Assembly (NCBI GenBank): GCA_963666285.1
Contig: OY762711.1
Direction: 5' to 3' (one strand)
Origin: Sedimentisphaerales bacterium
GTDB lineage: Bacteria > Planctomycetota > Phycisphaerae > Sedimentisphaerales > SM23-30
Length of the DNA: 64,000 bases
Translations under genes and position numbers: made by a program
In this document: piece after piece, positions 13,294 to 40,526 of the stretch
Position numbering within the stretch: position 1 is the stretch's first letter
Layout: each line of letters starts with the position of its first letter
The notes under the pieces: model-generated
The model's database searches: none
The model's input: the letters and a program-made list of their open reading frames with translations, nothing else
What the model was told of the DNA's origin: nothing

Positions 13294-13320
13294 ATATAAA
13301 TGCTAAGTTTAGTTCCGAAT

Positions 13321-15587
13321 TTAATTTTTATCATACACCCTGACATAATCAATATAATATTTATGAGGAAACAGGCTGTCATCAATACCTTTTTGACCGC
13401 CCCATGCTCCGCCAATCGCAAGGTTTAGTATTAAATAATGCGGCTTATCAAACGGCCATTCATTATCTCCGGTACCTTCATTACGAAAAGTAAAATAATG
13501 CTTATTATCAACGAATGTCTCAATCCTGTCATCATACCACTCAATTGCATATAAATGATACTTATCCATACAGGTTGGAACCTTTATAGTAGCACTCTTC
13601 TGTGTGCCGATTACATGATAATAGCTCTTACAGTGAATTGTGCCAACGATAGTCTCCGGATCATAACCAACATTTTCCATTATATCGATCTCGCCGCATT
13701 TCGGCCACCCAACCTGACCAATATTTTTCCCCAACATCCATATCGCCGGCCAGGTCCCTTTCCCTGTTGGCAGCTTTGCCCTTATCTCAAATCTACCATA
13801 AGTCCATTCTTTCTTCCCTGCAGTATGGATACTCGCTGATGTATATTCAGCATTCTCTTTGTACCCCTCTTTTCGTGCCTCAATCAGCAAACTGCCATTC
13901 TCAACACGTGTATTCTCCAGTCTCTGCCTGGTATAATATTGCTTTTCATTATTTCGGATAAAACCAACCTCATGGTTCCACTTCTCAGCATCAGGCAAGC
14001 CCTGATAGTCAAACTCATCATTCCAGCTCAACTTCCACTCAGGATCCTCCGGTTTATTGTAGCCCTTTTCATCACAATGCAATTTTGAATGCAATCTTAC
14101 TTTATTTACCGTATCCCCGCCATTTTGTAAGTAAAACCGGTTTTCCTTGACTCCGGAATCAATTCTATCTGATTTCGTATTATCTGCGGTAAAAACGGCA
14201 CTTGTTAACGGATGCCATATACCATCGATACTCTTCACCCAGCCATTACCAAAACTTGCATTGCGGATTTGCTTGGCACTTTCGCCATTACGCCTGAAAT
14301 CTTCGACAAACGAATAATACCCTTTTAATGGATCGCCAGCGGTTTTTGTCTGGAATGTAGCAAGATGCTTCCAGCCGCTCGTCTCGCTCAAACAAACAAA
14401 AGCTGAGTAAATTGTTGTGTCATTCTCTACCACAGCTTTGACTATACACCTTACAGTCTGGTTCAGCTCCCAATCAGTATAAAACATAGACTTCGCGCCC
14501 GTGCCTTCATTTCCAAACCTGCTTATTTTTACATCATCTCCGGAAAATATAACTTTAACCCGGTTTTCTTCTTGCACCTTAGCTGGATCATTCTGATCAC
14601 CCGGATCCCACACAGAGAAGATTACTACTTTTTTCCCTCCCCATAACTCCTGGATTCCAAAATAGCCGTGATTAAATCCACAAACGCAAAAGTAACTGCC
14701 TGGAACACTTTTTTCAACTGAAACTTCATTATAAAATGCCATACCTTCCGGAGCGTCATACCACAAATGAACACTGCGGGCTGCTCTAGGAAACTCATTT
14801 CCCTGGGCCAAGACATTTGTTACTATTAAAAAACATATAAACAGGAGAATAAACGTATACTTTTGTCGAGTAGGCATGTCGCCTCCTTTCATTAATTTAA
14901 CAAATTCTGAGTTTCATTATATTTTGTGCAAGGAAACGCATGCCCCTCACAGAACCGGACTTGAAGATTTCCCTCATCCGGCTCTTCATTAATGCTCACT
15001 TTGACGGCTACATAAGGCAAAGTAATGTGCCTTGTAGAAGTCTCCGATAGAAGACGCTGTGGAACGTTCATGGTTTCTTCCAGTTCAGTGCCTGGCCAAT
15101 ATCCTGTTTCGCCTTTACACATTAATGCTGACCCCTTCGAGTGCCTCAAACTTCGAAACTCAACAGGCATTACCCTGTTTACTCCTCTACTATGAGTCAG
15201 TCCGACTACCAAAATGCCATACGGCCGCGTCACGGTTTCAGCTCCTTGGCCGCTTCCTTTCGGAGCACTTCGGTTCTCCCAAGTTCCAATGCAGTCAGTT
15301 CGTTTGCCCGCTACGGACTCAGACCCCGGCTCGTCGATATATGCTCGCCGTATTTCGCATATATCGATATTGGCTTCAGGCATATGAAAACCCTGGCCCG
15401 GATGCGATAAGGAATAATTTCGGGGCTCAACACCTTCACTTGCGTTGTGGCTGACAAACTCCTTTCCCGGGGCTTCGTACAGTTCGTTACCTCTCTGCAC
15501 GCCCGGTGCTGTAATGGGCGGGTGGCTAGCCCTTACCCATGCCGGATTGGCCGGCTTGACTACATTAGCTTCGCTTGGCGCTCTCAT
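13321..15587 (-). CDS. Secreted DUF3472-like + GH16 (laminarinase-type) hydrolase, interrupted by a group II intron; exons 15584-15587 and 13321-14864
   Basis: GH16 motif WPAIWMLG..WPKCGEIDIMEN; splicing joins ATGA|AAAAG to give MKKYTFILLFICF signal peptide (515 aa); unspliced RNA has an in-frame ATG at 14877. Confidence 0.85.
14865..15583 (-). mobile_element. RT-less group II intron, copy 1 (719 nt)
   Basis: 5' GAGCG; domain V GAGCCGGATGAGGGAAATCTTCAAGTCCGGTTC (14952-14984, AGC triad); domain VI with bulged A (14871) ending CTCGAC; short DIV closed by CATTAATGT/GCATTAATG; no YADD/RT; identical copy 2955 bp away. Confidence 0.92.
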
Positions 15588-15646
15588 ACTCTTTCCTTAC
15601 CCGGCATAACCAGATGAATTAAAAAATTAAACTTATGGCCAAAATA

Positions 15647-16795
15647 TCATTGTTTTAGCCATTCAAATGAAAATCTGTCAAAAACTATCATCTCATATGG
15701 ATGATCATTTCCTTTCTCAAATAAACAGCCCGCTGTCCCATCAGCCGTCACTGCAAGACACGAATACGCACTGGCTCCGCTATATAGCAATTTTGCGACC
15801 GGCCAGGTCTTACCATCGTCATAACTCAGCCTAACAGTCATGTTAACACGAGAACTCATACTCGCTGGATTAGAAAACAGAAGATAAGGTCGTGATTGTG
15901 AGTTATCATCATCACTCATCCACTTCACAATACTCGCCTGGCAGATTGGCTCAACCAATTCAGAATCATAAAAAGTCTCCGACCAGGTTACTCCGCCATC
16001 GTCACTGCAGCTCACCGCACGGGTCCTATTCTCCCTGAAGTAATTTCTGCTATTCAGCATAATCCTTCCGTCCGACAATTCGACAACCTGACACTCATTT
16101 AACTTATCTGCCCGGGTTGAACCTCCCAGCTTCCAGCTGTTACCATGGTCATCGGAATAACTAACATGAGAATAATACTTCTTGCTACCCTTCTCTATAT
16201 GATCGCAAGGTATCACCAATCTCCCATTAAACCGCCCGCTGCATAGCTGAATCCCGCAACCAGGCCCGGTTGCATACCAGCTCCAGTTTTCCTGCTTTGT
16301 CGAACTGGTTATATCAATAGGCTTTGTCCAGGAAATACCATCATCTGAACTGTGAGACACCCAGACTGTTCTGGTCTCTTTACTGCTGCCATCTATTATC
16401 TGCCTTTCGTGGTCCGAGCCAAGGTTGCGAGTCATAAGCAACCAGATAATACCGGTATCTTCGTCTACCACCACACAAGGATTACCGCAGGTATTTTCAC
16501 CGTCTGACCAGACTATTATCTGATCTGACCATGTTTTACCATTATCTGTACTTCGCTTCAGTAAAATATCGATATTGCCGGCATCCCCTTTGTTTTCCCT
16601 GCCTTCACAAAATGCCAGGATAGTCCCTTTTGTAGTCACTCCCAAAGCCGGAATACGATAGGTATGATAGCCGCCACTGCCACTTTCGTAAACAGTGCAT
16701 ATTTCTCTCTCAAAATTACTTTCAGCCAAAACATGAAAATGACAAACCAAAAGTAATATTATAATTTTCAGTCCAAAATACATGTAATTATTCAT
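15647..16795 (-). CDS. Secreted exo-alpha-sialidase (GH33)
   Basis: YRIP motif; Asp-boxes STDNGKTW, SSDDGISW, SDDHGNSW, SDDGGVTW, SYDDGKTW; signal peptide. Confidence 0.92.
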   Translation of the reverse strand: MNNYMYFGLKIIILLLVCHFHVLAESNFEREICTVYESGSGGYHTYRIPALGVTTKGTILAFCEGRENKGDAGNIDILLKRSTDNGKTWSDQIIVWSDGENTCGNPCVVVDEDTGIIWLLMTRNLGSDHERQIIDGSSKETRTVWVSHSSDDGISWTKPIDITSSTKQENWSWYATGPGCGIQLCSGRFNGRLVIPCDHIEKGSKKYYSHVSYSDDHGNSWKLGGSTRADKLNECQVVELSDGRIMLNSRNYFRENRTRAVSCSDDGGVTWSETFYDSELVEPICQASIVKWMSDDDNSQSRPYLLFSNPASMSSRVNMTVRLSYDDGKTWPVAKLLYSGASAYSCLAVTADGTAGCLFEKGNDHPYEMIVFDRFSFEWLKQ

Positions 16796-16821
16796 ATCTA
16801 CACCTCGATAAGCTGACAGGC

Positions 16822-18542
16822 TTACTGTCTCGTATTGTTCACCTTGACTGCTTCAATTGTCATATCTTTCCATTCGGATTCAATACCGCGTAAATGATGA
16901 TCGAAAAACTGCTTTGTATATTTAATTGTCTCCGGTCCAAATCCTTGACCGTGCCCTCCGTCTTTTACGGTAATCATTGTACAGTTTATTTTTGCTTTTC
17001 TCAAAGCAGTAATAAATAATTCAGATTGATTATACGGCACCAGCGGATCTTTGGTACCATGAATTATTAAAAATGGAGGATCATCTTTAGTAATATACCG
17101 AATTGGATTCGCAGTAGCAACCTTATCCTTATTCTCTTGTATGGCTCCTCCGATAAGTTCTGATTCCGGCGAATCTGGTGCATCGTGGCTCTGGATCGAA
17201 CCTGCTTTATCCATCTGCAAAAAATCGGTCGGGCCAAAGAAATCTGCAACACATGAAACATGACTCGAAACGTCTTTATATTCTCCTAGTCCCCCATCCA
17301 TAACCGCCGCTCCACTGCTCGTACCCAGCATTGATACCAGGTGGCCGCCGGCTGATGATCCCCATACCCCTATCCTATCGCTATCTAATCCGTATTTATT
17401 TGCATTTGCCCTTATCCAGCGAATGGCAGCTTTACAGTCATGAATTTGTGCCGGCCAAACGGCATCTCCACTTAACCTGTAATTTACTGTCGCCGCGGCA
17501 TAATCTCCTGAAGCAACAAACGGTATCAGCTTTCCGACACTACTGGATTTATCTCCCGCTCTAAATGCTCCGCCATGAACATACACAATTACAGGCAAAG
17601 ACTTTTCTCCTGAATTCTTTGGAATCAGCAAATCTAAACACTGTCTTTCATGACTGTTTTTTAGATAAGGTAAGTCTTTTATGTGTAGAACATTATCGCG
17701 GTTCATCTTATACTGCATACCTCTTTCCGGCCTTTCCCTGTTTTGTTCCTGCTGGCCGAATAGCTGAGCTGCTCCCAAAAATATAACCAGAATCACGATT
17801 ATCTGTCTATTAATATCTTGTCGAGTAGGCATGTCGCCTCCTTTCATTAATTTAACAAATTCTGAGTTTCATTATATTTTGTGCAAGGAAACGCATGCCC
17901 CTCACAGAACCGGACTTGAAGATTTCCCTCATCCGGCTCTTCATTAATGCTCACTTTGACGGCTACATAAGGCAAAGTAATGTGCCTTGTAGAAGTCTCC
18001 GATAGAAGACGCTGTGGAACGTTCATGGTTTCTTCCAGTTCAGTGCCTGGCCAATATCCTGTTTCGCCTTTACACATTAATGCTGACCCCTTCGAGTGCC
18101 TCAAACTTCGAAACTCAACAGGCATTACCCTGTTTACTCCTCTACTATGAGTCAGTCCGACTACCAAAATGCCATACGGCCGCGTCACGGTTTCAGCTCC
18201 TTGGCCGCTTCCTTTCGGAGCACTTCGGTTCTCCCAAGTTCCAATGCAGTCAGTTCGTTTGCCCGCTACGGACTCAGACCCCGGCTCGTCGATATATGCT
18301 CGCCGTATTTCGCATATATCGATATTGGCTTCAGGCATATGAAAACCCTGGCCCGGATGCGATAAGGAATAATTTCGGGGCTCAACACCTTCACTTGCGT
18401 TGTGGCTGACAAACTCCTTTCCCGGGGCTTCGTACAGTTCGTTACCTCTCTGCACGCCCGGTGCTGTAATGGGCGGGTGGCTAGCCCTTACCCATGCCGG
18501 ATTGGCCGGCTTGACTACATTAGCTTCGCTTGGCGCTCTCAT
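16822..18542 (-). CDS. Secreted alpha/beta-hydrolase (esterase), interrupted by a group II intron; exons 18539-18542 and 16822-17819
   Basis: HGGAF, GSSAGG nucleophile, HGTKD, GGHG; splicing joins ATGA|AAGAT to give MKDINRQIIVILVIF (333 aa). Confidence 0.85.
17820..18538 (-). mobile_element. RT-less group II intron, copy 2 (719 nt)
   Basis: Apparently identical to 14865-15583 (same translations in three frames); boundaries ATGA|GAGCG...CTCGAC|AAGAT. Confidence 0.92.
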
Positions 18543-18568
18543 AAAAACTCCCTTCATTATTCTATCGA

Positions 18569-19904: not shown

Positions 19905-20159
19905 CAATCTCACTTTTTTTATTTATTTCAAAAAAAATAAAAATCTATTTGCCAAACCCGCAGGCATGTTCTGTGTTTAACTAATAAGGCTGAGTAATTT
20001 GTTTGTCGATCGGGAATTTATCACCCATTCTTGAATATGTGTGCCACAACATGGCCTTTGATGTCGGGACCACTAATTGCGAAACCCTGGCATAACAACC
20101 TAAAAAATCAGAAAGGAGCATACAACGCGGGCACTACAGGCACCCGCTAAAAAAAATAA

Positions 20160-20320
20160 AGTGACCTCTGGAAATTGCTTTTGATGCGATAGTTTAAGAT
20201 TTTGGTTGCTGACAAGGAACATAAAATCGTGCATATTGGGCTATATTCACTGTTTTATGTGACGCATGTCAGAAGGCAAAAGAAAAACTTGTCGCTCAAA
20301 ATGAATTTTCTGAGGTTGCC
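20160..20320. mobile_element. 161-bp MITE-like element, copy 1
   Basis: Imperfect TIRs GTGACCTCTGGAAATT / AATTTTCTGAGGTTGCC; near-identical copy at 34259-34419. Confidence 0.8.
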
Positions 20321-20449
20321 TTAAGTAATGTAGGTAATATCAGAGCCGCGAGGTGAACCGAGCGGTTTATCTCGGCATAAGCCGATTTAATCAGTTTTCC
20401 GCCTTTGGCGGACAACCTTAGCTTATTTCTTATATCTTATTACTTGTTA

Positions 20450-34186: not shown

Positions 34187-34258
34187 AATTATATAACTCC
34201 TATGATTTTCTAATTTCCCAAAATATTAATCTGAGATTAGCTGACATATTCAACTAAA

Positions 34259-34419
34259 GGTGACCTCTGGAAATTGCTTTTGATGCGATAGTTTAAGATT
34301 TTGGTTGCTGACAAGAAATATAAAATCGTGCATATTGGGATATATTCACTGTTTTATATGACGCATGTCAGCAGGCAAAAGAAAAACTAGTCGCTCAAAA
34401 TGAATTTTCTGAGGTTGCC
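34259..34419. mobile_element. 161-bp MITE-like element, copy 2, with TAAA target-site duplication
   Basis: TIRs GGTGACCTCTGGAAATT / AATTTTCTGAGGTTGCC flanked by TAAA at 34255-58 and 34420-23. Confidence 0.85.
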
Positions 34420-35126
34420 TAAACTGTTATCTTTCTAAACACCTGATCAAAAGAACCGCCAAATTCATTCTTCAAATTTGCAGAAGTATCATTTGCCACA
34501 ATTCTGCCCCTGTTAACAATTACAACACGAGAACACATAGCTTCAACTTCTTCGAGAATATGAGTTGAAATGACAATACATTTTTCTTTTGCCATTTTAT
34601 CTATAAGCATCCTAACCTCATACTTCTGATTAGGATCAAGACCATCTGTCGGCTCATCTAAAATTAAAACGGGTGGATCATGGATAAGACACTGAGCCAG
34701 GCCTACCCTGCGTTTGAATCCCTTTGAGAGAGTCTCAATCGTCTGATGGTAAACTTTTTTTATCGAGCACATGTCAACGACTTTTTCGATTGCAGCCCCC
34801 CTGACATTCCCCTTGATTTCCCGGGCATCACAAACAAAGTTTAGAAAAGATGAAACCGTCATTTCACCATACGCCGGGGCGTTCTCTGCCAGGTAACCGA
34901 GTTGTTTACGTACACCTATGGGGTCTTTTATAATATCATGACCACAGATAGACGCAGTTCCGCTATCAGGAGCGAGAAAACAAGCCAGCATTTTCATGGC
35001 AGTGCTTTTTCCTGCACCATTTGGTCCAAGAAAGCCTAATACCTCTCCCTTGCCAACTTCAAAACTTATACCATCTACGGCCTTTATCGGTCCAAAGCTG
35101 CGTCTAAGGTCATTTACCTTTATCAT
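34419..35126 (-). CDS. GldA-like ABC transporter ATP-binding protein
   Basis: GPNGAGKS, LSKGF signature, ILDEPTDGLDP, STHIL. Confidence 0.93.
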   Translation of the reverse strand: MIKVNDLRRSFGPIKAVDGISFEVGKGEVLGFLGPNGAGKSTAMKMLACFLAPDSGTASICGHDIIKDPIGVRKQLGYLAENAPAYGEMTVSSFLNFVCDAREIKGNVRGAAIEKVVDMCSIKKVYHQTIETLSKGFKRRVGLAQCLIHDPPVLILDEPTDGLDPNQKYEVRMLIDKMAKEKCIVISTHILEEVEAMCSRVVIVNRGRIVANDTSANLKNEFGGSFDQVFRKITV

Positions 35127-35619: not shown

Positions 35620-37047
35620 ATGACTGATAGTGCGAGCATCCAAGATATGACTACAACAGAAAAAAGGCACTGTTTTCAAGCGGGTTTTTTACCCGTCCCG
35701 CTGCAATCTGTTCCCCCTGAAAGCTTACAGGGGATTGAAGTCTTCATCTACACACATCCCACATACAGCCTTTATAAAAGTTGCGGGCTGGAATTTAATT
35801 TACAGGATTACAATCGCCTTATTGAGGCTGGAACAGAACACGTTTACATATCTACGAGAGATCATCAGAAATATTATGACGCTATCGAAAGTTCACTGAA
35901 TGAAATTGTTTCTGATAAGAAGATTGCACTCAAGCAAAAATGCGATGTGCTTTATGCCACAACAATGGCTTTGACCAAGGAAATCACTAAAAGCCCGCCT
36001 GAAGGCAAAACCATCACTAAAGCAGAAAAACTAACCGAAAGTACCATAAAGCTGATATTAAATAATCCAAAAGCGTTTCAATATCTATTTAAAGTATCCA
36101 ATCACGATTTCTTTACCGCTACCCATATGTCTAATGTAAGTATATTGCTGGTTTCTTTTGCGGAAAAAATTGGCATTAGAGATATAAGATTGCTTCATGA
36201 TATTGGGACAGGCGGAATGCTTCATGATATTGGTAAAGTTTTCATTCCAAATGATCTGCTTAATAGTACAGAAAAACTCACAACTGAAGAATTTGACCTT
36301 ATAAAAGGTCACGTCCAAAGAGGTTTGGATCACCTGCGAGAAAAAGCAGATCTATCAGAAAATGTGATTAAACTTGTGGCAGAGCATCATGAAAAAATGG
36401 ATGGTTCCGGTTATCCAAATGCTCTGCAAACTGACGAAATATCAATTTTTGGCAGAATGATCACAATAGTCGATATGTTTGAGGCTATGACATCTGTCAG
36501 ACCATATCGCGACAAGAGCTTCTCTCCGGAACAGGCAATGGATATTATTGCCGAAATGACACCTAAACAGCTGGATGAAAAAGTTGTAAATTCTTTTGTT
36601 CAGTTTATTGACTCCTCTTTACTGGGGATAGAACACCCGGAAGACGATAATGACGACAATAACTATATATTGTCAGCTTTGGGCATAAGCAAAGCTGACA
36701 CTGATAATCCTTCTGGCAGACGCCACAAAAGGTATTATTTCAGAATTAAAACTTCAGTAAGAACAGTTTCAGTAACAAACAAACAATGGAGACTCGGTCC
36801 TGAAAAATCTGTTATTGCTCATAATATCTCGCAAAGCGGCATGGGACTTCTTAGTCCGAATAAGTATGAAATTGGACAAATAATTAGTATTTCGCTCTAT
36901 GTGCCTAAATTGGGAAAAACCATAAACTACTTCGCAAAAATAGTAAGATATATGGACCATACCGATGGATGGTATACTTTAGGTGCTGAATTTGTTAAAG
37001 AAAAAACATATGAGCATGTAAATGAAATCTATATGGCACTAAAATAA
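35620..37047 (+). CDS. HD-GYP phosphodiesterase with C-terminal PilZ domain (paralog 1)
   Basis: LHDIGK, HHEKMDGSGYP, RPYR; PilZ RRHKRY...NISQSG. Confidence 0.9.
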   Translation: MTDSASIQDMTTTEKRHCFQAGFLPVPLQSVPPESLQGIEVFIYTHPTYSLYKSCGLEFNLQDYNRLIEAGTEHVYISTRDHQKYYDAIESSLNEIVSDKKIALKQKCDVLYATTMALTKEITKSPPEGKTITKAEKLTESTIKLILNNPKAFQYLFKVSNHDFFTATHMSNVSILLVSFAEKIGIRDIRLLHDIGTGGMLHDIGKVFIPNDLLNSTEKLTTEEFDLIKGHVQRGLDHLREKADLSENVIKLVAEHHEKMDGSGYPNALQTDEISIFGRMITIVDMFEAMTSVRPYRDKSFSPEQAMDIIAEMTPKQLDEKVVNSFVQFIDSSLLGIEHPEDDNDDNNYILSALGISKADTDNPSGRRHKRYYFRIKTSVRTVSVTNKQWRLGPEKSVIAHNISQSGMGLLSPNKYEIGQIISISLYVPKLGKTINYFAKIVRYMDHTDGWYTLGAEFVKEKTYEHVNEIYMALK

Positions 37048-37116
37048 ATTCCTTTACGCTTTACTTAGCTTCTCAGTTTTTAAATTGAAATAACGCAGTG
37101 CCTTGTTCTTTTTTCA

Positions 37117-37206
37117 TTTTCACTGAATTGTCCTTGTTCCAGCCTTTGCGAATAAAGCTAAACCGTTTTAAGTGCGTCATGTATATATGGTGCGAAGCAT
37201 AAACCG
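37117..37206. repeat. ~90-bp dispersed repeat, copy B
   Basis: Aligns with 19817-19904 with a 2-nt indel. Confidence 0.65.
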
Positions 37207-37330
37207 TACTTTAAGAGAAACATTCAATCCGGCATATATTATCTTTATTTATAGATAGTTACATACATTTCCCTACTTCCTTATTTCGGCCACCACAACA
37301 GATGGTATAATAATCTTTTTCATATTCATA

Positions 37331-37358
37331 TAAAATATTGTTAAAATTCAGCCGATAT
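37331..37358 (+). promoter_or_regulatory. Putative sigma28 (FliA) promoter
   Basis: TAAA-N16-GCCGATAT. Confidence 0.65.
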
Positions 37359-37440
37359 ATCAATGAATTGAAATGATTCTAAAATGTTGCTGAGATAATT
37401 TCATAATGATGATATGTATAGAATTAACATGAGGAAGTTT

Positions 37441-38868
37441 ATGGCAGATTCAGCTGTAATAGAAAAAGGAGAACAAACACATAATAAAAAAAGCTGCGTA
37501 CAGGAAGGTTTTCTGCCTGTGCCGTTAGCATCAGTCCCCCCAGACAGTCTTAACGGACTTGAAGTATATATCTCTACTTCACCTTCCTACAGTCTTTACA
37601 AAAGCAGTGATCTTAAATTTTGTGCTAAAGATTATGAACGTCTTATTAACGCCGGTACTGAATATGTCTATATTGCTACAAAAGACCATCAGAAATATTA
37701 TAACGCCATCGAAGACTCACTTAGCGATATTGTAAAAGATAAAACCATAGCATTAAATAAAAAATGTGAAATTCTATATGCGACAACAATTGCCTTAACA
37801 AAAGAACTTTCTTCTGCTCCTATTGAAGCTAAAAATATAAATAAAGCGGTTAAACATACTGAAAGTACCATTAGCCTGGTATTGAAAAACCCCAAAGCAT
37901 TCCACCATCTTTTCAATATATCAAATCACGATTTTTATACCGCTACCCATGTATCAAACGTTAGTATTATGCTGGTAACTTTTGCCCATAAAATAGGGGT
38001 TAATGATACACAAATCCTCAATGATCTGGGAACTGGCGGACTTCTTCACGATGTCGGAAAAGTATTTGTCCCGCAAGAACTTCTTAACTGCACAGAAAAA
38101 CTGACTCAGGAAGAATTTGAAATCATAAAAAGCCATGTCAAAAAAGGAGTGATATACCTTGAAGAAAATGCTGATTTATCTGAAATCAGCCTTAAACTCG
38201 TTGCCGAACACCACGAAAAAATGGATGGTTCAGGCTATCCCTACGGACTTGAAGGAGAAAACATATCCCCCCAGGGACGGTTGATCGCTGCCGTAGACAT
38301 GTTTGAAGCTATGACTTCTGTGCGCCCATACCGTGATTCCGGTATCCCCACTGAGCAGGCAATGGAAATGATACGAAACATGGCACCCGAACAGCTGGAT
38401 GAAAAAATTGTATGTTCATTCATGCAATTTGTCGAAAATTCCATAAGCGGTAATGATACTCAACAATCAGAACAATCTGATTTCCAGGTACTTGCAGCGT
38501 TAGGGATCATGGAAGGCGGCATAAAAAACCCTTCTGGCAGACGCCACGAACGTTATTTTTTCAGAGTTAAATCAACTATCAGAACCGTCTTCCACCAAAA
38601 TAATACAATATACTATGGTCCAGAACACAATATCATCATGCATAATATATCTCAAAGCGGAATTGGTATTCTTAGCTATCGTAAATTTGATGAGGGGCAA
38701 TTCATTAATATCGGGATAAAAATTCCTGGCAAGGACAGCGAAGAACACTATTTTGCCAAAGTAGTAAGAATAATTGACCATGCTGACGGGTGGTATACTC
38801 TTGGTGCCGAATTTGTTAAAATGAAATCAGCCGAGCAAATAATGGACATATATACACAATTGAAATAA
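37441..38868 (+). CDS. HD-GYP phosphodiesterase with C-terminal PilZ domain (paralog 2)
   Basis: LHDVGK, HHEKMDGSGYP; RRHERY...NISQSG; SD GAGGA before ATG 37441 (ORF open from 37414). Confidence 0.9.
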   Translation: MADSAVIEKGEQTHNKKSCVQEGFLPVPLASVPPDSLNGLEVYISTSPSYSLYKSSDLKFCAKDYERLINAGTEYVYIATKDHQKYYNAIEDSLSDIVKDKTIALNKKCEILYATTIALTKELSSAPIEAKNINKAVKHTESTISLVLKNPKAFHHLFNISNHDFYTATHVSNVSIMLVTFAHKIGVNDTQILNDLGTGGLLHDVGKVFVPQELLNCTEKLTQEEFEIIKSHVKKGVIYLEENADLSEISLKLVAEHHEKMDGSGYPYGLEGENISPQGRLIAAVDMFEAMTSVRPYRDSGIPTEQAMEMIRNMAPEQLDEKIVCSFMQFVENSISGNDTQQSEQSDFQVLAALGIMEGGIKNPSGRRHERYFFRVKSTIRTVFHQNNTIYYGPEHNIIMHNISQSGIGILSYRKFDEGQFINIGIKIPGKDSEEHYFAKVVRIIDHADGWYTLGAEFVKMKSAEQIMDIYTQLK

Positions 38869-38982
38869 TCATTATAATCACTACCATTTATTATTACCAC
38901 AACTGACTGATACAATCATCAAGAACACATATAATATTCTTATTTTTTCGTTTTTTTTACCTGTATTACACCTAAGTTCTTC

Positions 38983-39010
38983 TCAAATTCCACAATCATT
39001 CTACCGATAC
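38983..39010 (+). promoter_or_regulatory. Putative sigma28 (FliA) promoter
   Basis: TCAA-N16-ACCGATAC. Confidence 0.55.
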
Positions 39011-39101
39011 AATATCTAGCTGGTAAAAAAGACTTTAACTTTTTCCAGTGTTAAATATATTGCTACAGATAAACATACCGCAAAGGGAGAACTAAAGATA
39101 T

Positions 39102-40526
39102 ATGCCAGTTGAAACTGCCGTAGATAACTTGCAATTAACAGAGAATAAAAGTTGCATTCAGGAGGGTTACCTACCTGTTCCACTCAAATCTGTACCCCCT
39201 CAAAGCCTTAAAGGACTTGAAGTCTATATTTTTGCTTCTCCTTCCTACAGCCTATATAAAAGTATTGGTTTAAAATTTGAAATCAAAGACCATGAACGCC
39301 TTATCGAAGCCGGTACCGACTACGTCTATATCGCCGTTAAAGATCATAATAATTATTTTGCCGCTATAGAAAATTCTCTTAATAACATCATTAACGATAA
39401 GAAAATAGCTCTACGCAAAAAATGTGAAATTCTATATGCTACTACATTAGCTTTAGCAAATGAAATTTCTCGTTCAAATCCAACAAAAAAAGTTGTCAAT
39501 CAAATAAGAAAAGTAACTGAAAATTCGGTTAAGCTTGTATTAAAAAATCCTAGTGCTTTCAGACATTTATTTTCCATATCCAATCATGATTTCTTCACAG
39601 CAACACATTCCACAAATGTTAGTGTAATGCTGCTCTCTTTTGCATGTAATATTGGTATTTCAGAACCGCAAATACTCAAGGAAATTGGTACCGGAGCACT
39701 TCTTCATGACACAGGTAAAATATTTATACCACAAGATTTGCTTAACTATAAAGAAAAACTCAATGAAGAGCAGCTGGCTACTATAAGAAGCCACGTAGAA
39801 AAAGGTGCAATGCACTTGAGAGCCTACTCAGACCTGTCCGAAGAAATTATCAGAATGACAGAAGAACATCACGAAAGAATGGATGGGACCGGGTATCCAA
39901 AACGGTTAAGAACAAAGCAGATCTCCGTGTATGGAAGAATGTTGGCCATTGTCGACTCTTTTGAAGCTATGACATCCGTAAGACCATACAGAGAAGGTTG
40001 CATGTCTGTAGAACAAGCCATGGACATGATAAACGATATGGCTCCCAGCCAGCTTGATGAGAAAATTGTTGAGTCATTTTGCCGGTTCATCGAATCTAAT
40101 CTTTTGAGCCAAAATGAAGAAATTACACCAAATATTGATTACGGCATACTTAAAGCGCTAGGACTGGCTGAAAAAGATAAGGAAAATCCTTCCGGCAGAA
40201 GACATAGAAGGTTTTATTTCAGAGTAAGATCGTCTCTGCAAATTGTTCGCAGAAAAGATAACAGGTTTCTACTCAGCCCCGAACATCTCATTATTGCCCA
40301 TAACATATCACAAAGCGGCATAGGGTTTCTATGTACCAGGGAATATAATCACGACGACATTATCAGGATTACAATTAATATCCACAAAGATAATAAAAAG
40401 ATTACATTTCTGGCTAAAATTGTTCGGTGCCTTGATCACGCTGATGGCTGGTTCACGTTAGGGGCTCAGTTCATCGAAGAAAAATCCTCTGAAAATATTC
40501 ACGATATCCACTCCAGCTTAAGGTAA
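39102..40526 (+). CDS. HD-GYP phosphodiesterase with C-terminal PilZ domain (paralog 3)
   Basis: LHDTGK, HHERMDGTGYP; RRHRRF...NISQSG. Confidence 0.9.
   Translation: MPVETAVDNLQLTENKSCIQEGYLPVPLKSVPPQSLKGLEVYIFASPSYSLYKSIGLKFEIKDHERLIEAGTDYVYIAVKDHNNYFAAIENSLNNIINDKKIALRKKCEILYATTLALANEISRSNPTKKVVNQIRKVTENSVKLVLKNPSAFRHLFSISNHDFFTATHSTNVSVMLLSFACNIGISEPQILKEIGTGALLHDTGKIFIPQDLLNYKEKLNEEQLATIRSHVEKGAMHLRAYSDLSEEIIRMTEEHHERMDGTGYPKRLRTKQISVYGRMLAIVDSFEAMTSVRPYREGCMSVEQAMDMINDMAPSQLDEKIVESFCRFIESNLLSQNEEITPNIDYGILKALGLAEKDKENPSGRRHRRFYFRVRSSLQIVRRKDNRFLLSPEHLIIAHNISQSGIGFLCTREYNHDDIIRITINIHKDNKKITFLAKIVRCLDHADGWFTLGAQFIEEKSSENIHDIHSSLR

Follow-up and report, generated by a model that had tools for sequence, protein, structure and literature searches.

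A group II intron without a reverse transcriptase gene, positioned one base behind the start codons of bacterial genes

The window analysed here, a 64,000-nucleotide (nt) stretch of a Sedimentisphaerales bacterium, corresponds to C1:3616001-3680000 of the 6.35-Mb assembly and contains two copies of a 719-nt group II intron on its minus strand (15583 to 14865 and 18538 to 17820). Very probably, these are copies of an intron that has lost its reverse transcriptase (RT) gene, that consists of a small IIB-like ribozyme of the IIE/IIF type, and that belongs to a widespread clade homing to translation initiation regions, where it inserts exactly after ATGA, between the first and second bases of codon 2. 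With eight genomic copies at 99.6-100% identity, the element far exceeds anything expected from chance. The copies and their parts, including the exon-binding sites (EBS) of the ribozyme, the intron-binding sites (IBS) of the 5' exon and the Shine-Dalgarno (SD) sequences of the interrupted genes, are as follows.

14865..15583, minus strand: intron copy 1, a 719-nt group II intron without an open reading frame (ORF); RF02005 match at 15314-15550, RF00029 match at 14865-14986
17820..18538, minus strand: intron copy 2, 719 nt, same sequence as copy 1; RF02005 match at 18269-18505, RF00029 match at 17820-17941
15584..15588, minus strand: IBS1 of copy 1, TATGA (host ATG plus the first base of codon 2), the partner of the EBS1 loop
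18539..18543, minus strand: IBS1 of copy 2, TATGA, formed by the host start codon and one further base (from the flank sequence)
15593..15601, minus strand: host SD and candidate IBS2 of copy 1 (GGTAAGGAA), 4 nt 5' of TATGA; 9-base-pair (bp) complementarity to UUCCUUAUC
18548..18555, minus strand: host SD and candidate IBS2 of copy 2 (GAAGGGAG); 7-bp helix (AGGGAGT) with the EBS2 stretch
15382..15387 (copy 1) and 18337-18342 (copy 2), minus strand: EBS1 (UCAUAU), a hairpin loop of domain I; covaries with the 5' exon end in 38 elements
15406..15414 (copy 1) and 18361-18369 (copy 2), minus strand: candidate EBS2, an anti-SD-like stretch (UUCCUUAUC) of the internal loop that precedes the EBS1 hairpin on its 5' side
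14952..14984 (copy 1) and 17907-17939 (copy 2), minus strand: domain V with AGC triad and 5-nt GAAAU loop, from the RF00029 alignment
14865..14950 (copy 1) and 17820-17905 (copy 2), minus strand: extended domain VI, in which the minimum-free-energy fold places a bulged branch-point A 7 nt before the 3' end
14875..14890 (copy 1), minus strand: SD-like GAAAGGAGG at 14882-14890, then an AUG at 14875-14877 that opens the last 13 nt of the intron and shares the phase of exon 2; the corresponding positions in copy 2 are 17837-17845 and 17830-17832
14892..15587, minus strand: open frame of 231 codons, from the host ATG across the whole intron to TAA TGA

The two window copies are 100% identical to each other, begin with GAGCG and end with CTCGAC, as an earlier sequence-only reading of this DNA had described, and read 5' to 3' on the minus strand. 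The identical stretch spans 726 nt (14863-15588 and 17818-18543) and is longer than the intron because TATGA upstream and AA downstream are common to both copies. Beyond these bases the flanks are unrelated: copy 1 is preceded by GGGTAAGGAAAGAGTATGA and followed by AAAAGTATACG, copy 2 is preceded by ATGAAGGGAGTTTTTATGA and followed by AAGATATTAATAG. A search with Rfam models, which the same reading had proposed, placed both copies well above the gathering thresholds. Each matches RF02005 (group-II-D1D4-6) with 115.9 bits (gathering 49, E 4e-32), with model positions 1-225 all matched, and RF00029 (domains V and VI) with 55.5 bits (gathering 40), the latter match ending exactly at the last intron base, 14865 and 17820. 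The 3' part has a domain V hairpin with the AGC triad, an A that bulges out 7 nt before the 3' end in the predicted fold, and a terminal AC. Neither blastn nor tblastx found an RT remnant in domain IV of the 719-nt copy, and the description of the copies as RT-less group II introns is upheld.

Removal of the introns joins the start codons to two unrelated genes, yielding proteins that start with MKKYTFILLF... (515 codons, gene 1) and MKDINRQIIVILV... (333 codons, gene 2). The second exons of these hosts are the following.

13321..14864, minus strand: exon 2 of host gene 1, a secreted protein with DUF3472 and a glycoside hydrolase family 16 (GH16) domain (Pfam PF11958 277 bits, PF00722 87 bits)
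16822..17819, minus strand: exon 2 of host gene 2, a BD-FAE family esterase with an N-terminal signal-like segment (Pfam PF20434 239.9 bits)

A homologue of gene 1 in a related genome (G004) starts with MKYKSN... immediately after an SD, which supports the MK... N-terminus. Unrelated flanks and two different kinds of host, a GH16 protein and an esterase, bear out the proposal that the copies inserted independently after the ATGA of different genes, and that their excision restores signal-peptide starts of the MK... type. Empty orthologous sites were not present in the five genomes searched, which contained only paralogues of both host proteins with at most 56% identity. A sialidase-like gene and a second esterase gene lie between and upstream of the two host genes.

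Genome-wide, blastn detects eight copies of 719 nt, of which four are identical, three have two differences and one has three. It also detects a 648-nt variant that matches in two blocks (89% and 96% identity), two short fragments, and two identical 1929-nt relatives encoding an ORF of 443 amino acids (aa). The recent activity that had been suggested for the intron fits the 0-3 differences per 719 nt among copies. Rather than lying at random positions, all nine ORF-less copies (the eight plus the 648-nt variant) are preceded by TATGA and followed by A, and six of them are located at clear gene starts. These six interrupt ORFs of 153-515 codons, and in every case removal of the intron restores the reading frame (1/3^6 = 0.0014). 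The six clear host proteins all start with signal-peptide-like, membrane or prepilin-type leader segments, and five contain Pfam domains (GH16, esterase, HlyD, transglutaminase and a prepilin N-methylation motif). The prepilin motif begins at residue 1 of exon 2; therefore, the true start of that gene lies just upstream.

The siting of the copies is non-random. The genome contains 6259 TATGAA sites, 871 of which are start-like under generous criteria, and 336 of these also carry an SD-like word. At least six of nine copies at SD-bearing start-like sites corresponds to P = 1.7e-6, in agreement with the proposed targeting of initiation sites; without the SD criterion the value is P = 4e-4. An SD-like motif accompanies 7/8 copies, compared to 25% expected for neutral TATGAA sites (P = 4e-4). 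Dispersal in many near-identical copies is a feature of this genome; the preference for start codons holds both here and, as described below, across a deep clade.

The sequences that pair with this site lie in domain I. An alignment of this domain shows a variable internal loop and, immediately 3' of it, a hairpin loop that reads 5'-UCAU(N)-3' in every element located at ATGA. Pairing between this loop and the exon comprises at least 4 contiguous bp ending at exon position -1 in 38/38 elements (mean 5.8), a count that leaves out three rearranged elements (L022, L031 and L035). Where the exon differs, the loop differs with it:

5' exon end UAAGA, loop UCUUA (resident full-length relative)
5' exon end ACACGG, loop CCGUGU
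5' exon end AAAAGUU, loop GACUUUU
5' exon end UGUCCC, loop GGGACA
5' exon end UAGGGA, loop UCCCUA
5' exon end GGGGACA, loop UGUCCCC
5' exon end CCUUGA, loop UCAAGG
5' exon end AAAUGU, loop ACAUUU
5' exon end UAAUGG, loop CCAUUA

These compensatory changes in relatives identify the loop as EBS1: UCAUAU pairs with UAUGA and puts the 5' splice site after ATGA. The three excluded elements belong to two other genomes (L022 and L031 to G012, L035 to G018). They are internally deleted, about 400-500 nt long and located at non-ATG sites, with a 5' part of domain I joined to other sequence and then to domains V and VI.

The variable internal loop acts as EBS2 in several relatives, where it forms 6-9 bp with a non-SD sequence adjoining IBS1. 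Such helices measure 8 bp in L018 and L053, 9 bp in L146, and 6 bp in L058 and L059, and they lie 2-4 nt from a 4-nt exon core, NUGA. In the 719-nt intron the corresponding candidate EBS2 is UUCCUUAUC, which resembles an anti-SD sequence because the 3' end of the organism's 16S rRNA reads ...CACCUCCUUUCU. At the eight occupied sites, EBS2 helices of 9, 7, 6, 7, 6, 7, 4 and 6 bp can be formed, compared to a mean of 4.1 over all TATGAA sites; a helix of at least 6 bp is available at 7/8 occupied sites versus 14.5% of all TATGAA sites (P = 9e-6). We infer from these complementarities that the anti-SD-like EBS2 (UUCCUUAUC) may pair with the SD-like purine tract of the host upstream of TATGA, while a U of the ribozyme would read the A at position +1. 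The ribozyme would then recognise SD, AUG and A through base pairing.

The same siting is found well beyond this genome. A DNA search of 41 related genomes gave matches in 13, this genome included, and no match to the intron in two genomes of the same genus (G001 and G003). Three RT-bearing copies in a genome of another family (G037) are all located after ATGA with AGGAG or AGGAA upstream, and G004 has a 732-nt ORF-less copy after ATGA. Searching the best two candidates per genome in 401 genomes of the phylum gave seven genomes with matches and no new ORF-less copies. Genome and metagenome collections searched with the RT yielded 160 loci. We define the close clade as loci with at least 50% RT identity; outside this genome it has 38 distinct 5' junctions, of which 24 follow ATGA, one each follows GTGA, TTGA, ATGT and ATGG, and 10 follow other sequences. 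Where an ATGA-sited element has a known 3' end and no less than 30 nt of flank, the downstream sequence stays open for 30 codons or more, or as far as the contig reaches, in 12/13 cases. The host genes in relatives are unrelated, because their N-termini differ from element to element. In the RT tree the close clade has a support of 100/99, and start-codon siting looks ancestral because ATGA-sited members occur on both sides of the basal split; members off ATG are single tips or fall into one five-member subclade. Members of the clade occur in Planctomycetota, Lentisphaerota, Ignavibacteriota and other groups.

More distant relatives (41-47% RT identity) come largely from Acidobacteriota and Planctomycetota, match RF02005, and occupy other, specific sites. 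Within this distant group, several elements (L130/L131, L063-L065, L128) show a GGAGGA...ATGA-like sequence within 90 nt 5' of the RF02005 match; this stretch is shared between copies, and the 5' ends look non-canonical.

Two of the relatives in the same genome may supply the enzyme for mobility. The 443-aa ORF of the 1929-nt introns encodes a group II RT/maturase (340 bits against TIGR04416, cut-off 300), and the protein lacks an endonuclease domain, since its Pfam match is RVT_1 only. The genome contains two intact RT frames (339-341 bits, TIGR04416) and a third, different one; this last gene (G000:C1:3875013-3876035) scores 315 bits against TIGR04416 and is broken by one TAA. The two 1929-nt introns are located at C1:910721-912649 (L011) and C1:5395339-5397267. 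One occupies its cognate UUAAGA site, beside an ORF that presumably encodes an IS110-family transposase; the other follows AATTATGA with one EBS1 mismatch and shares a repeated 20-nt flank with the 648-nt variant. The ORF-less copies thus share their genome with two intact RT-bearing relatives that could plausibly supply the enzyme, which makes the suggested mobilisation in trans plausible.

For group II introns whose RT lacks an endonuclease domain, nascent strands at replication forks serve as primers, and insertion is co-directional with the fork. RmInt1 is described as being guided to forks (PMC12584367). In the present genome, the GC skew is very clean and places the origin (minimum) at ~5.73 Mb and the terminus (maximum) at ~2.70 Mb. 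The 11 full elements, like the two fragments, all point in the direction of fork movement; with ~63% of ORFs of at least 300 codons co-directional (sum of bins), 11/11 has P ~0.009 at a rounded-up rate of 0.65. This orientation fits a mechanism in which the copies would spread by reverse splicing into DNA and by reverse transcription in trans, with the endonuclease-less RT of the full-length relatives as the probable enzyme and nascent strands at replication forks as the probable primers.

Domain VI contains candidate signals for translation. The last 13 intron nt read AUG CCU ACU CGA C, so this AUG is in phase with any gene split after ATGA. An ORF (MKGGDMPTRQKYTFILLF..., MKGGDMPTRQ followed by exon 2) runs from the intron into exon 2, and GAAAGGAGG, four nt upstream of the AUG, is a 9-nt complement of the 16S rRNA 3' end. 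Relatives have an AAGGAAC-type strand 7-9 nt before the same AUG, and every ATGA-sited element with an identified 3' end has both the AUG at -13 and an SD-like strand. Domain VI is 50-125 nt long in the elements measured, compared to ~32 nt in the subclade located off start codons. Six elements off start codons, namely the five-member subclade and L112 (whose RT frame is too short for the tree), have this short domain VI without the extension; ACG or GGG replaces the AUG in them, and their exon 2 begins with C or U. The distant RF02005 group also lacks the domain VI AUG. Loss of the domain VI SD and AUG away from start codons amounts to about one evolutionary event, and its link to siting is suggestive only.

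The intron itself is open in the phase of its host. From the host ATG the frame continues for 231 codons through the 719-nt intron until TAA TGA (intron positions 690-695), which leaves 11 nt to the domain VI AUG; the other two frames hold 14 and 20 stops. Only 1/20000 mononucleotide shuffles was as open. Host-phase stops occur at codon 5 and beyond in the 648-nt variant and the full-length relative. A protein search with the 231-codon frame returned 254 database entries. One entry of 230 aa is 71% identical over its full length and starts with MRAP, corresponding to ATGA joined to GAGCG. Among the best matches, 38/52 are 190-201 aa long; the nine of these that were inspected all end at the same ...LN stop, and their starts coincide with an internal MRS.GKG motif or lie shortly before it. 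Such a sharp peak in length hints at constraint without proving it; broken copies are invisible in such a search, because the database holds called ORFs only. Many database 'proteins' of ~131 aa (P0056-P0120) seem to be translated domains I-III of RT-bearing relatives, e.g. L017 and L055, and run from an internal AUG (MRSHGKG...) toward the start of the RT ORF. One ribozyme frame in RT-bearing relatives is stop-poor, with 3-6 stops per 180 codons compared to 7-17 in the others.

We infer that the host genes are expressed after splicing, and that unspliced transcripts may offer a back-up through the SD-like sequence and in-phase AUG of domain VI. Ribosomes starting at the host AUG would traverse the 231-codon frame and terminate 11 nt before the domain VI AUG. 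On the way they might open the helix in which the intron's perfect SD (GAAAGGAGG) is hidden, terminate at the UAAUGA of the domain VI loop and reinitiate at the in-phase AUG. In its boldest form, this picture describes an ORF-less intron family built for translation-through and harmless even without splicing, while its ribozyme reads the start site by mimicking the anti-SD (EBS2 with SD, EBS1 with AUGA). We offer this combined design tentatively, and consider it more probably wrong than right.

A number of observations weigh against parts of the main interpretation. A helix of at least 6 bp with EBS2 occurs at 7/8 occupied sites, but also at 51% of SD-bearing start-like sites (P = 0.04); because half of these sites reach 6 bp anyway, EBS2-SD pairing is inseparable from mere siting at SD-bearing starts. 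Clade-wide, own and permuted EBS2 helices average 5.5 and 5.1 bp, which is not significant, and the helix in this genome lies 0-8 nt 5' of TATGA, i.e. at a variable spacing to IBS1. The EBS2-IBS2 pairing is dispensable for self-splicing of IIE/IIF introns in vitro, with a role in homing suggested (Nagy et al. 2013, PMC3753933). The 5' end of the copies in this genome is GAGCG, with A at position 2, compared to the canonical GUGYG; relatives mostly have GUGCG or GUGUG, and three RT-bearing relatives have GAGUG. Of the three remaining copies, one lies before a doubtful 86-codon ORF and the other two before no gene. The resident RT-bearing relatives are 86% identical to the 719-nt intron in domains I-III and have a different EBS1 (UCUUA) and EBS2. 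Given this identity and the other EBS1, they are not the direct parent, but can be the source of the enzyme. The orientation of the copies with replication is partly explained by gene orientation. In the predicted fold of the extended domain VI, the SD-like strand pairs with a UUCCU-type (anti-SD-like) 5' strand, and may for this reason be purely structural. Finally, the host-phase frame stops after 5-154 codons in 37 related elements, and the three frames of the first 540 nt of 38 elements hold 390, 410 and 357 stops, on which grounds an open host-phase frame was rejected as a clade-wide property.

The strongest competing explanation is selection alone. EBS1 would read UAUGA followed by A, insertion would take place wherever this motif occurs, and copies would survive only at starts, where either efficient splicing or the SD and in-phase AUG carried by the intron render the insertion harmless; the upstream SD would be a by-product. 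The marginal excess of EBS2 complementarity over SD-bearing start-like sites, the permuted controls that perform as well across the clade, and an SD-to-ATG spacing at occupied sites like that of natural SDs all fit this account. It sits poorly with the 864 TATGAA sites outside any ORF of at least 100 codons, which should be equally harmless, yet carry an SD-like word in only 106 cases: about a quarter of survivors should show such a motif, in place of the observed seven of eight. Moreover, the copy without a gene (C1:5267085) and the one before the doubtful ORF (C1:2351430) keep SD-like tracts with EBS2 helices of 7 bp and 6 bp. On balance, we regard selection alone as unlikely. Less likely still is that the host has taken over the introns as regulators, so that separation of SD and AUG from the coding body would make the output of secreted enzymes dependent on splicing or maturase supply. 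The leader segments shared by all six clear hosts, the presence of two hosts in one gene cluster of the window, and the precedent of maturase-controlled ORF-less introns in Trichodesmium (PMC12584367) would agree with such a role. The copies are near-identical, hence recent and not anciently fixed, relatives occupy unrelated genes in other phyla, and the same-genus genomes G001 and G003 have no intron match; the MK(K/N/D) bias of the N-termini is expected from the AUGA-A target alone.

Homing to start regions by a distinct clade must also be set against the IIB1 (CL1) lineage. This specialised lineage of proteobacteria is located at start or stop codons, with Avi.groEL and EcKTE56.groEL as members (Michel et al. 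2007 per Gomes et al. 2025, PMC12584367); it is defined by a subdomain Ia of 300-700 nt, inserted close to the 5' end at the base of domain I, and how it finds its targets is described there as not understood. The sequence-only reading had named Avi.groEL relatives as the nearest precedent, which holds as an analogy in siting; as a family assignment it fails, as the 5' subterminal insertion is absent. Insertion in or beside initiation codons is common to both. The whole intron measures only 719 nt, its domain I core model starts at intron position 34, and the 5-nt domain V loop is a feature noted for IIE/IIF introns; its hosts are not proteobacteria and the interrupted genes are not housekeeping genes. 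The RT scores 109 bits against the 6me0 chain, which we take to be a IIB1/CL-type RT, below the 157 bits against LtrA and 153 against a IIC RT. Membership in the IIB1 lineage is therefore highly improbable. We give even less credence to an assembly artefact as the origin of the second copy, or to an intron-like repeat of another kind. Short-read contigs from three DNA runs do end inside the repeat, and none bridges a junction by at least 31 nt on both sides. The same contigs enter the intron from unique flanks by 26 and 23 nt, and word depth inside the element is ~9-10x that of the flanks, matching ~10 assembled copies. Both Rfam models score far above gathering, and nine different flank pairs each show ORF-restoring geometry. 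No joint that skips the intron, i.e. no empty-site allele, was found in the contigs of the three runs.

Judged from its RNA features and the RF02005 match, the intron looks like a IIE/IIF-type element with a new, generic target, the translation start. IIE/IIF introns are described as small IIB-like ribozymes of 450-700 nt without the intron-encoded protein (IEP), with a 5-nt domain V loop and, in IIF, a long structured domain VI (PMC3753933, PMC3552965). Their RT lacks the DNA-binding and endonuclease (D/En) domains, EBS1 and EBS2 are located in subdomain Id, and IBS1 and IBS2 lie just 5' of the splice site (PMC3753933, PMC3552965). The present element has the GAAAU domain V loop, a length of 719 nt without an IEP, a long domain VI and, in its relatives, a 443-aa RT with RVT_1 only. 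In ribozyme size, domain V loop, domain VI and RT it thus resembles the introns of Nagy et al. (2013, PMC3753933) and Toro and Martinez-Abarca (2013, PMC3552965), while the excerpts of these descriptions do not mention start-codon specificity, an anti-SD-like EBS2 or an SD and AUG in domain VI.

Compared to the IIB1 start/stop lineage, the likeness is that both are tied to translation signals and not to one gene sequence; an involvement of the ribosome has been proposed for IIB1 (PMC12584367). Those introns are ~3.2 kb long and typically occupy one housekeeping gene, e.g. at the groEL stop codon. In contrast, the introns described here have no 5' insertion, a small IIE/IIF-like ribozyme, an RT without an endonuclease domain, many unrelated host genes per genome, a fixed position after AUGA, and an SD and AUG in domain VI. 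Group IIC introns share with them a generic functional signal as target, a short IBS1, an endonuclease-less RT and many copies per genome. They recognise a stem-loop (terminator hairpin or attC) without EBS2 and lie outside genes, whereas the present introns would recognise SD and AUGA by pairing and interrupt the first codons of genes; their flanks read SD...ATGA with no hairpin requirement, and relatives have an EBS2-type loop that covaries with the exon.

ORF-less introns are rare in bacteria and, as a rule, are found together with related introns that encode an IEP (Zimmerly and Semper 2015, PMC4424553), and those of Trichodesmium dnaN and RIR are under coordinated, maturase-based control (PMC12584367). 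Like these and the Thermosynechococcus introns (PMC2882425), the copies described here occur beside related RT-encoding introns. They differ from those introns, which are served in trans, in that the ORF-less form is the commonest (8 versus 2), has its own EBS1 and EBS2, and keeps a frame open from the host AUG to domain VI. Three target specificities of bacterial group II introns, namely homing sites, terminators and attC sites, are listed in the excerpt of a 2015 review (PMC4424553). Full-text literature searches returned no description of this clade or design; a mention in older work (Simon et al. 2008, Michel et al. 2007) is possible.

The clade would represent a second, unrelated and widespread group of start-codon introns besides IIB1, with a readable pairing code composed of EBS1 = UCAU and the candidate anti-SD-like EBS2. 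Such a code would provide a concrete, testable mechanism by which a retroelement aims at translation starts in general, and would show a low-cost way for an intron to live inside bacterial genes. If the read-through and restart design is real, a single RNA would act at once as a ribozyme, as a translated leader and as a ribosome-binding site. As tools for gene targeting, ribozymes that are small, lack an endonuclease and recognise a short programmable target also have practical interest.

Among the contigs of runs X1 and X2 over window positions 13300-17700, at least two flanks of intron junctions correspond to none of the nine assembled copies. One of them (26 nt) is an exact match to C1:2802446-2802471, where the assembly reads ...GAAGGATAAAAAATCAAGAG, without the intron and without TATGA; the other (30 nt) has no match in the assembly at up to 2 mismatches. 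These flanks may reflect strain variation or a paralogous repeat.

The window contains further repeats. An intergenic repeat of ~165 nt is present at 20158-20324 and 34257-34423, with 95% identity between the copies, and blastn detects at least 60 matches to it in the genome; ~40 of the matches listed have at least 88% identity over ~160 nt. Its orientation follows the replichore, the reverse complement of the window plus strand being co-directional with replication. It gave no Rfam match at gathering, and could be a miniature inverted-repeat transposable element, a small RNA or an element like the repetitive extragenic palindromes. At 35662-40246, three tandem units of ~1.7-1.8 kb (repeat families D1, D2 and D5) are 62-72% identical and presumably correspond to three paralogous genes in a row.

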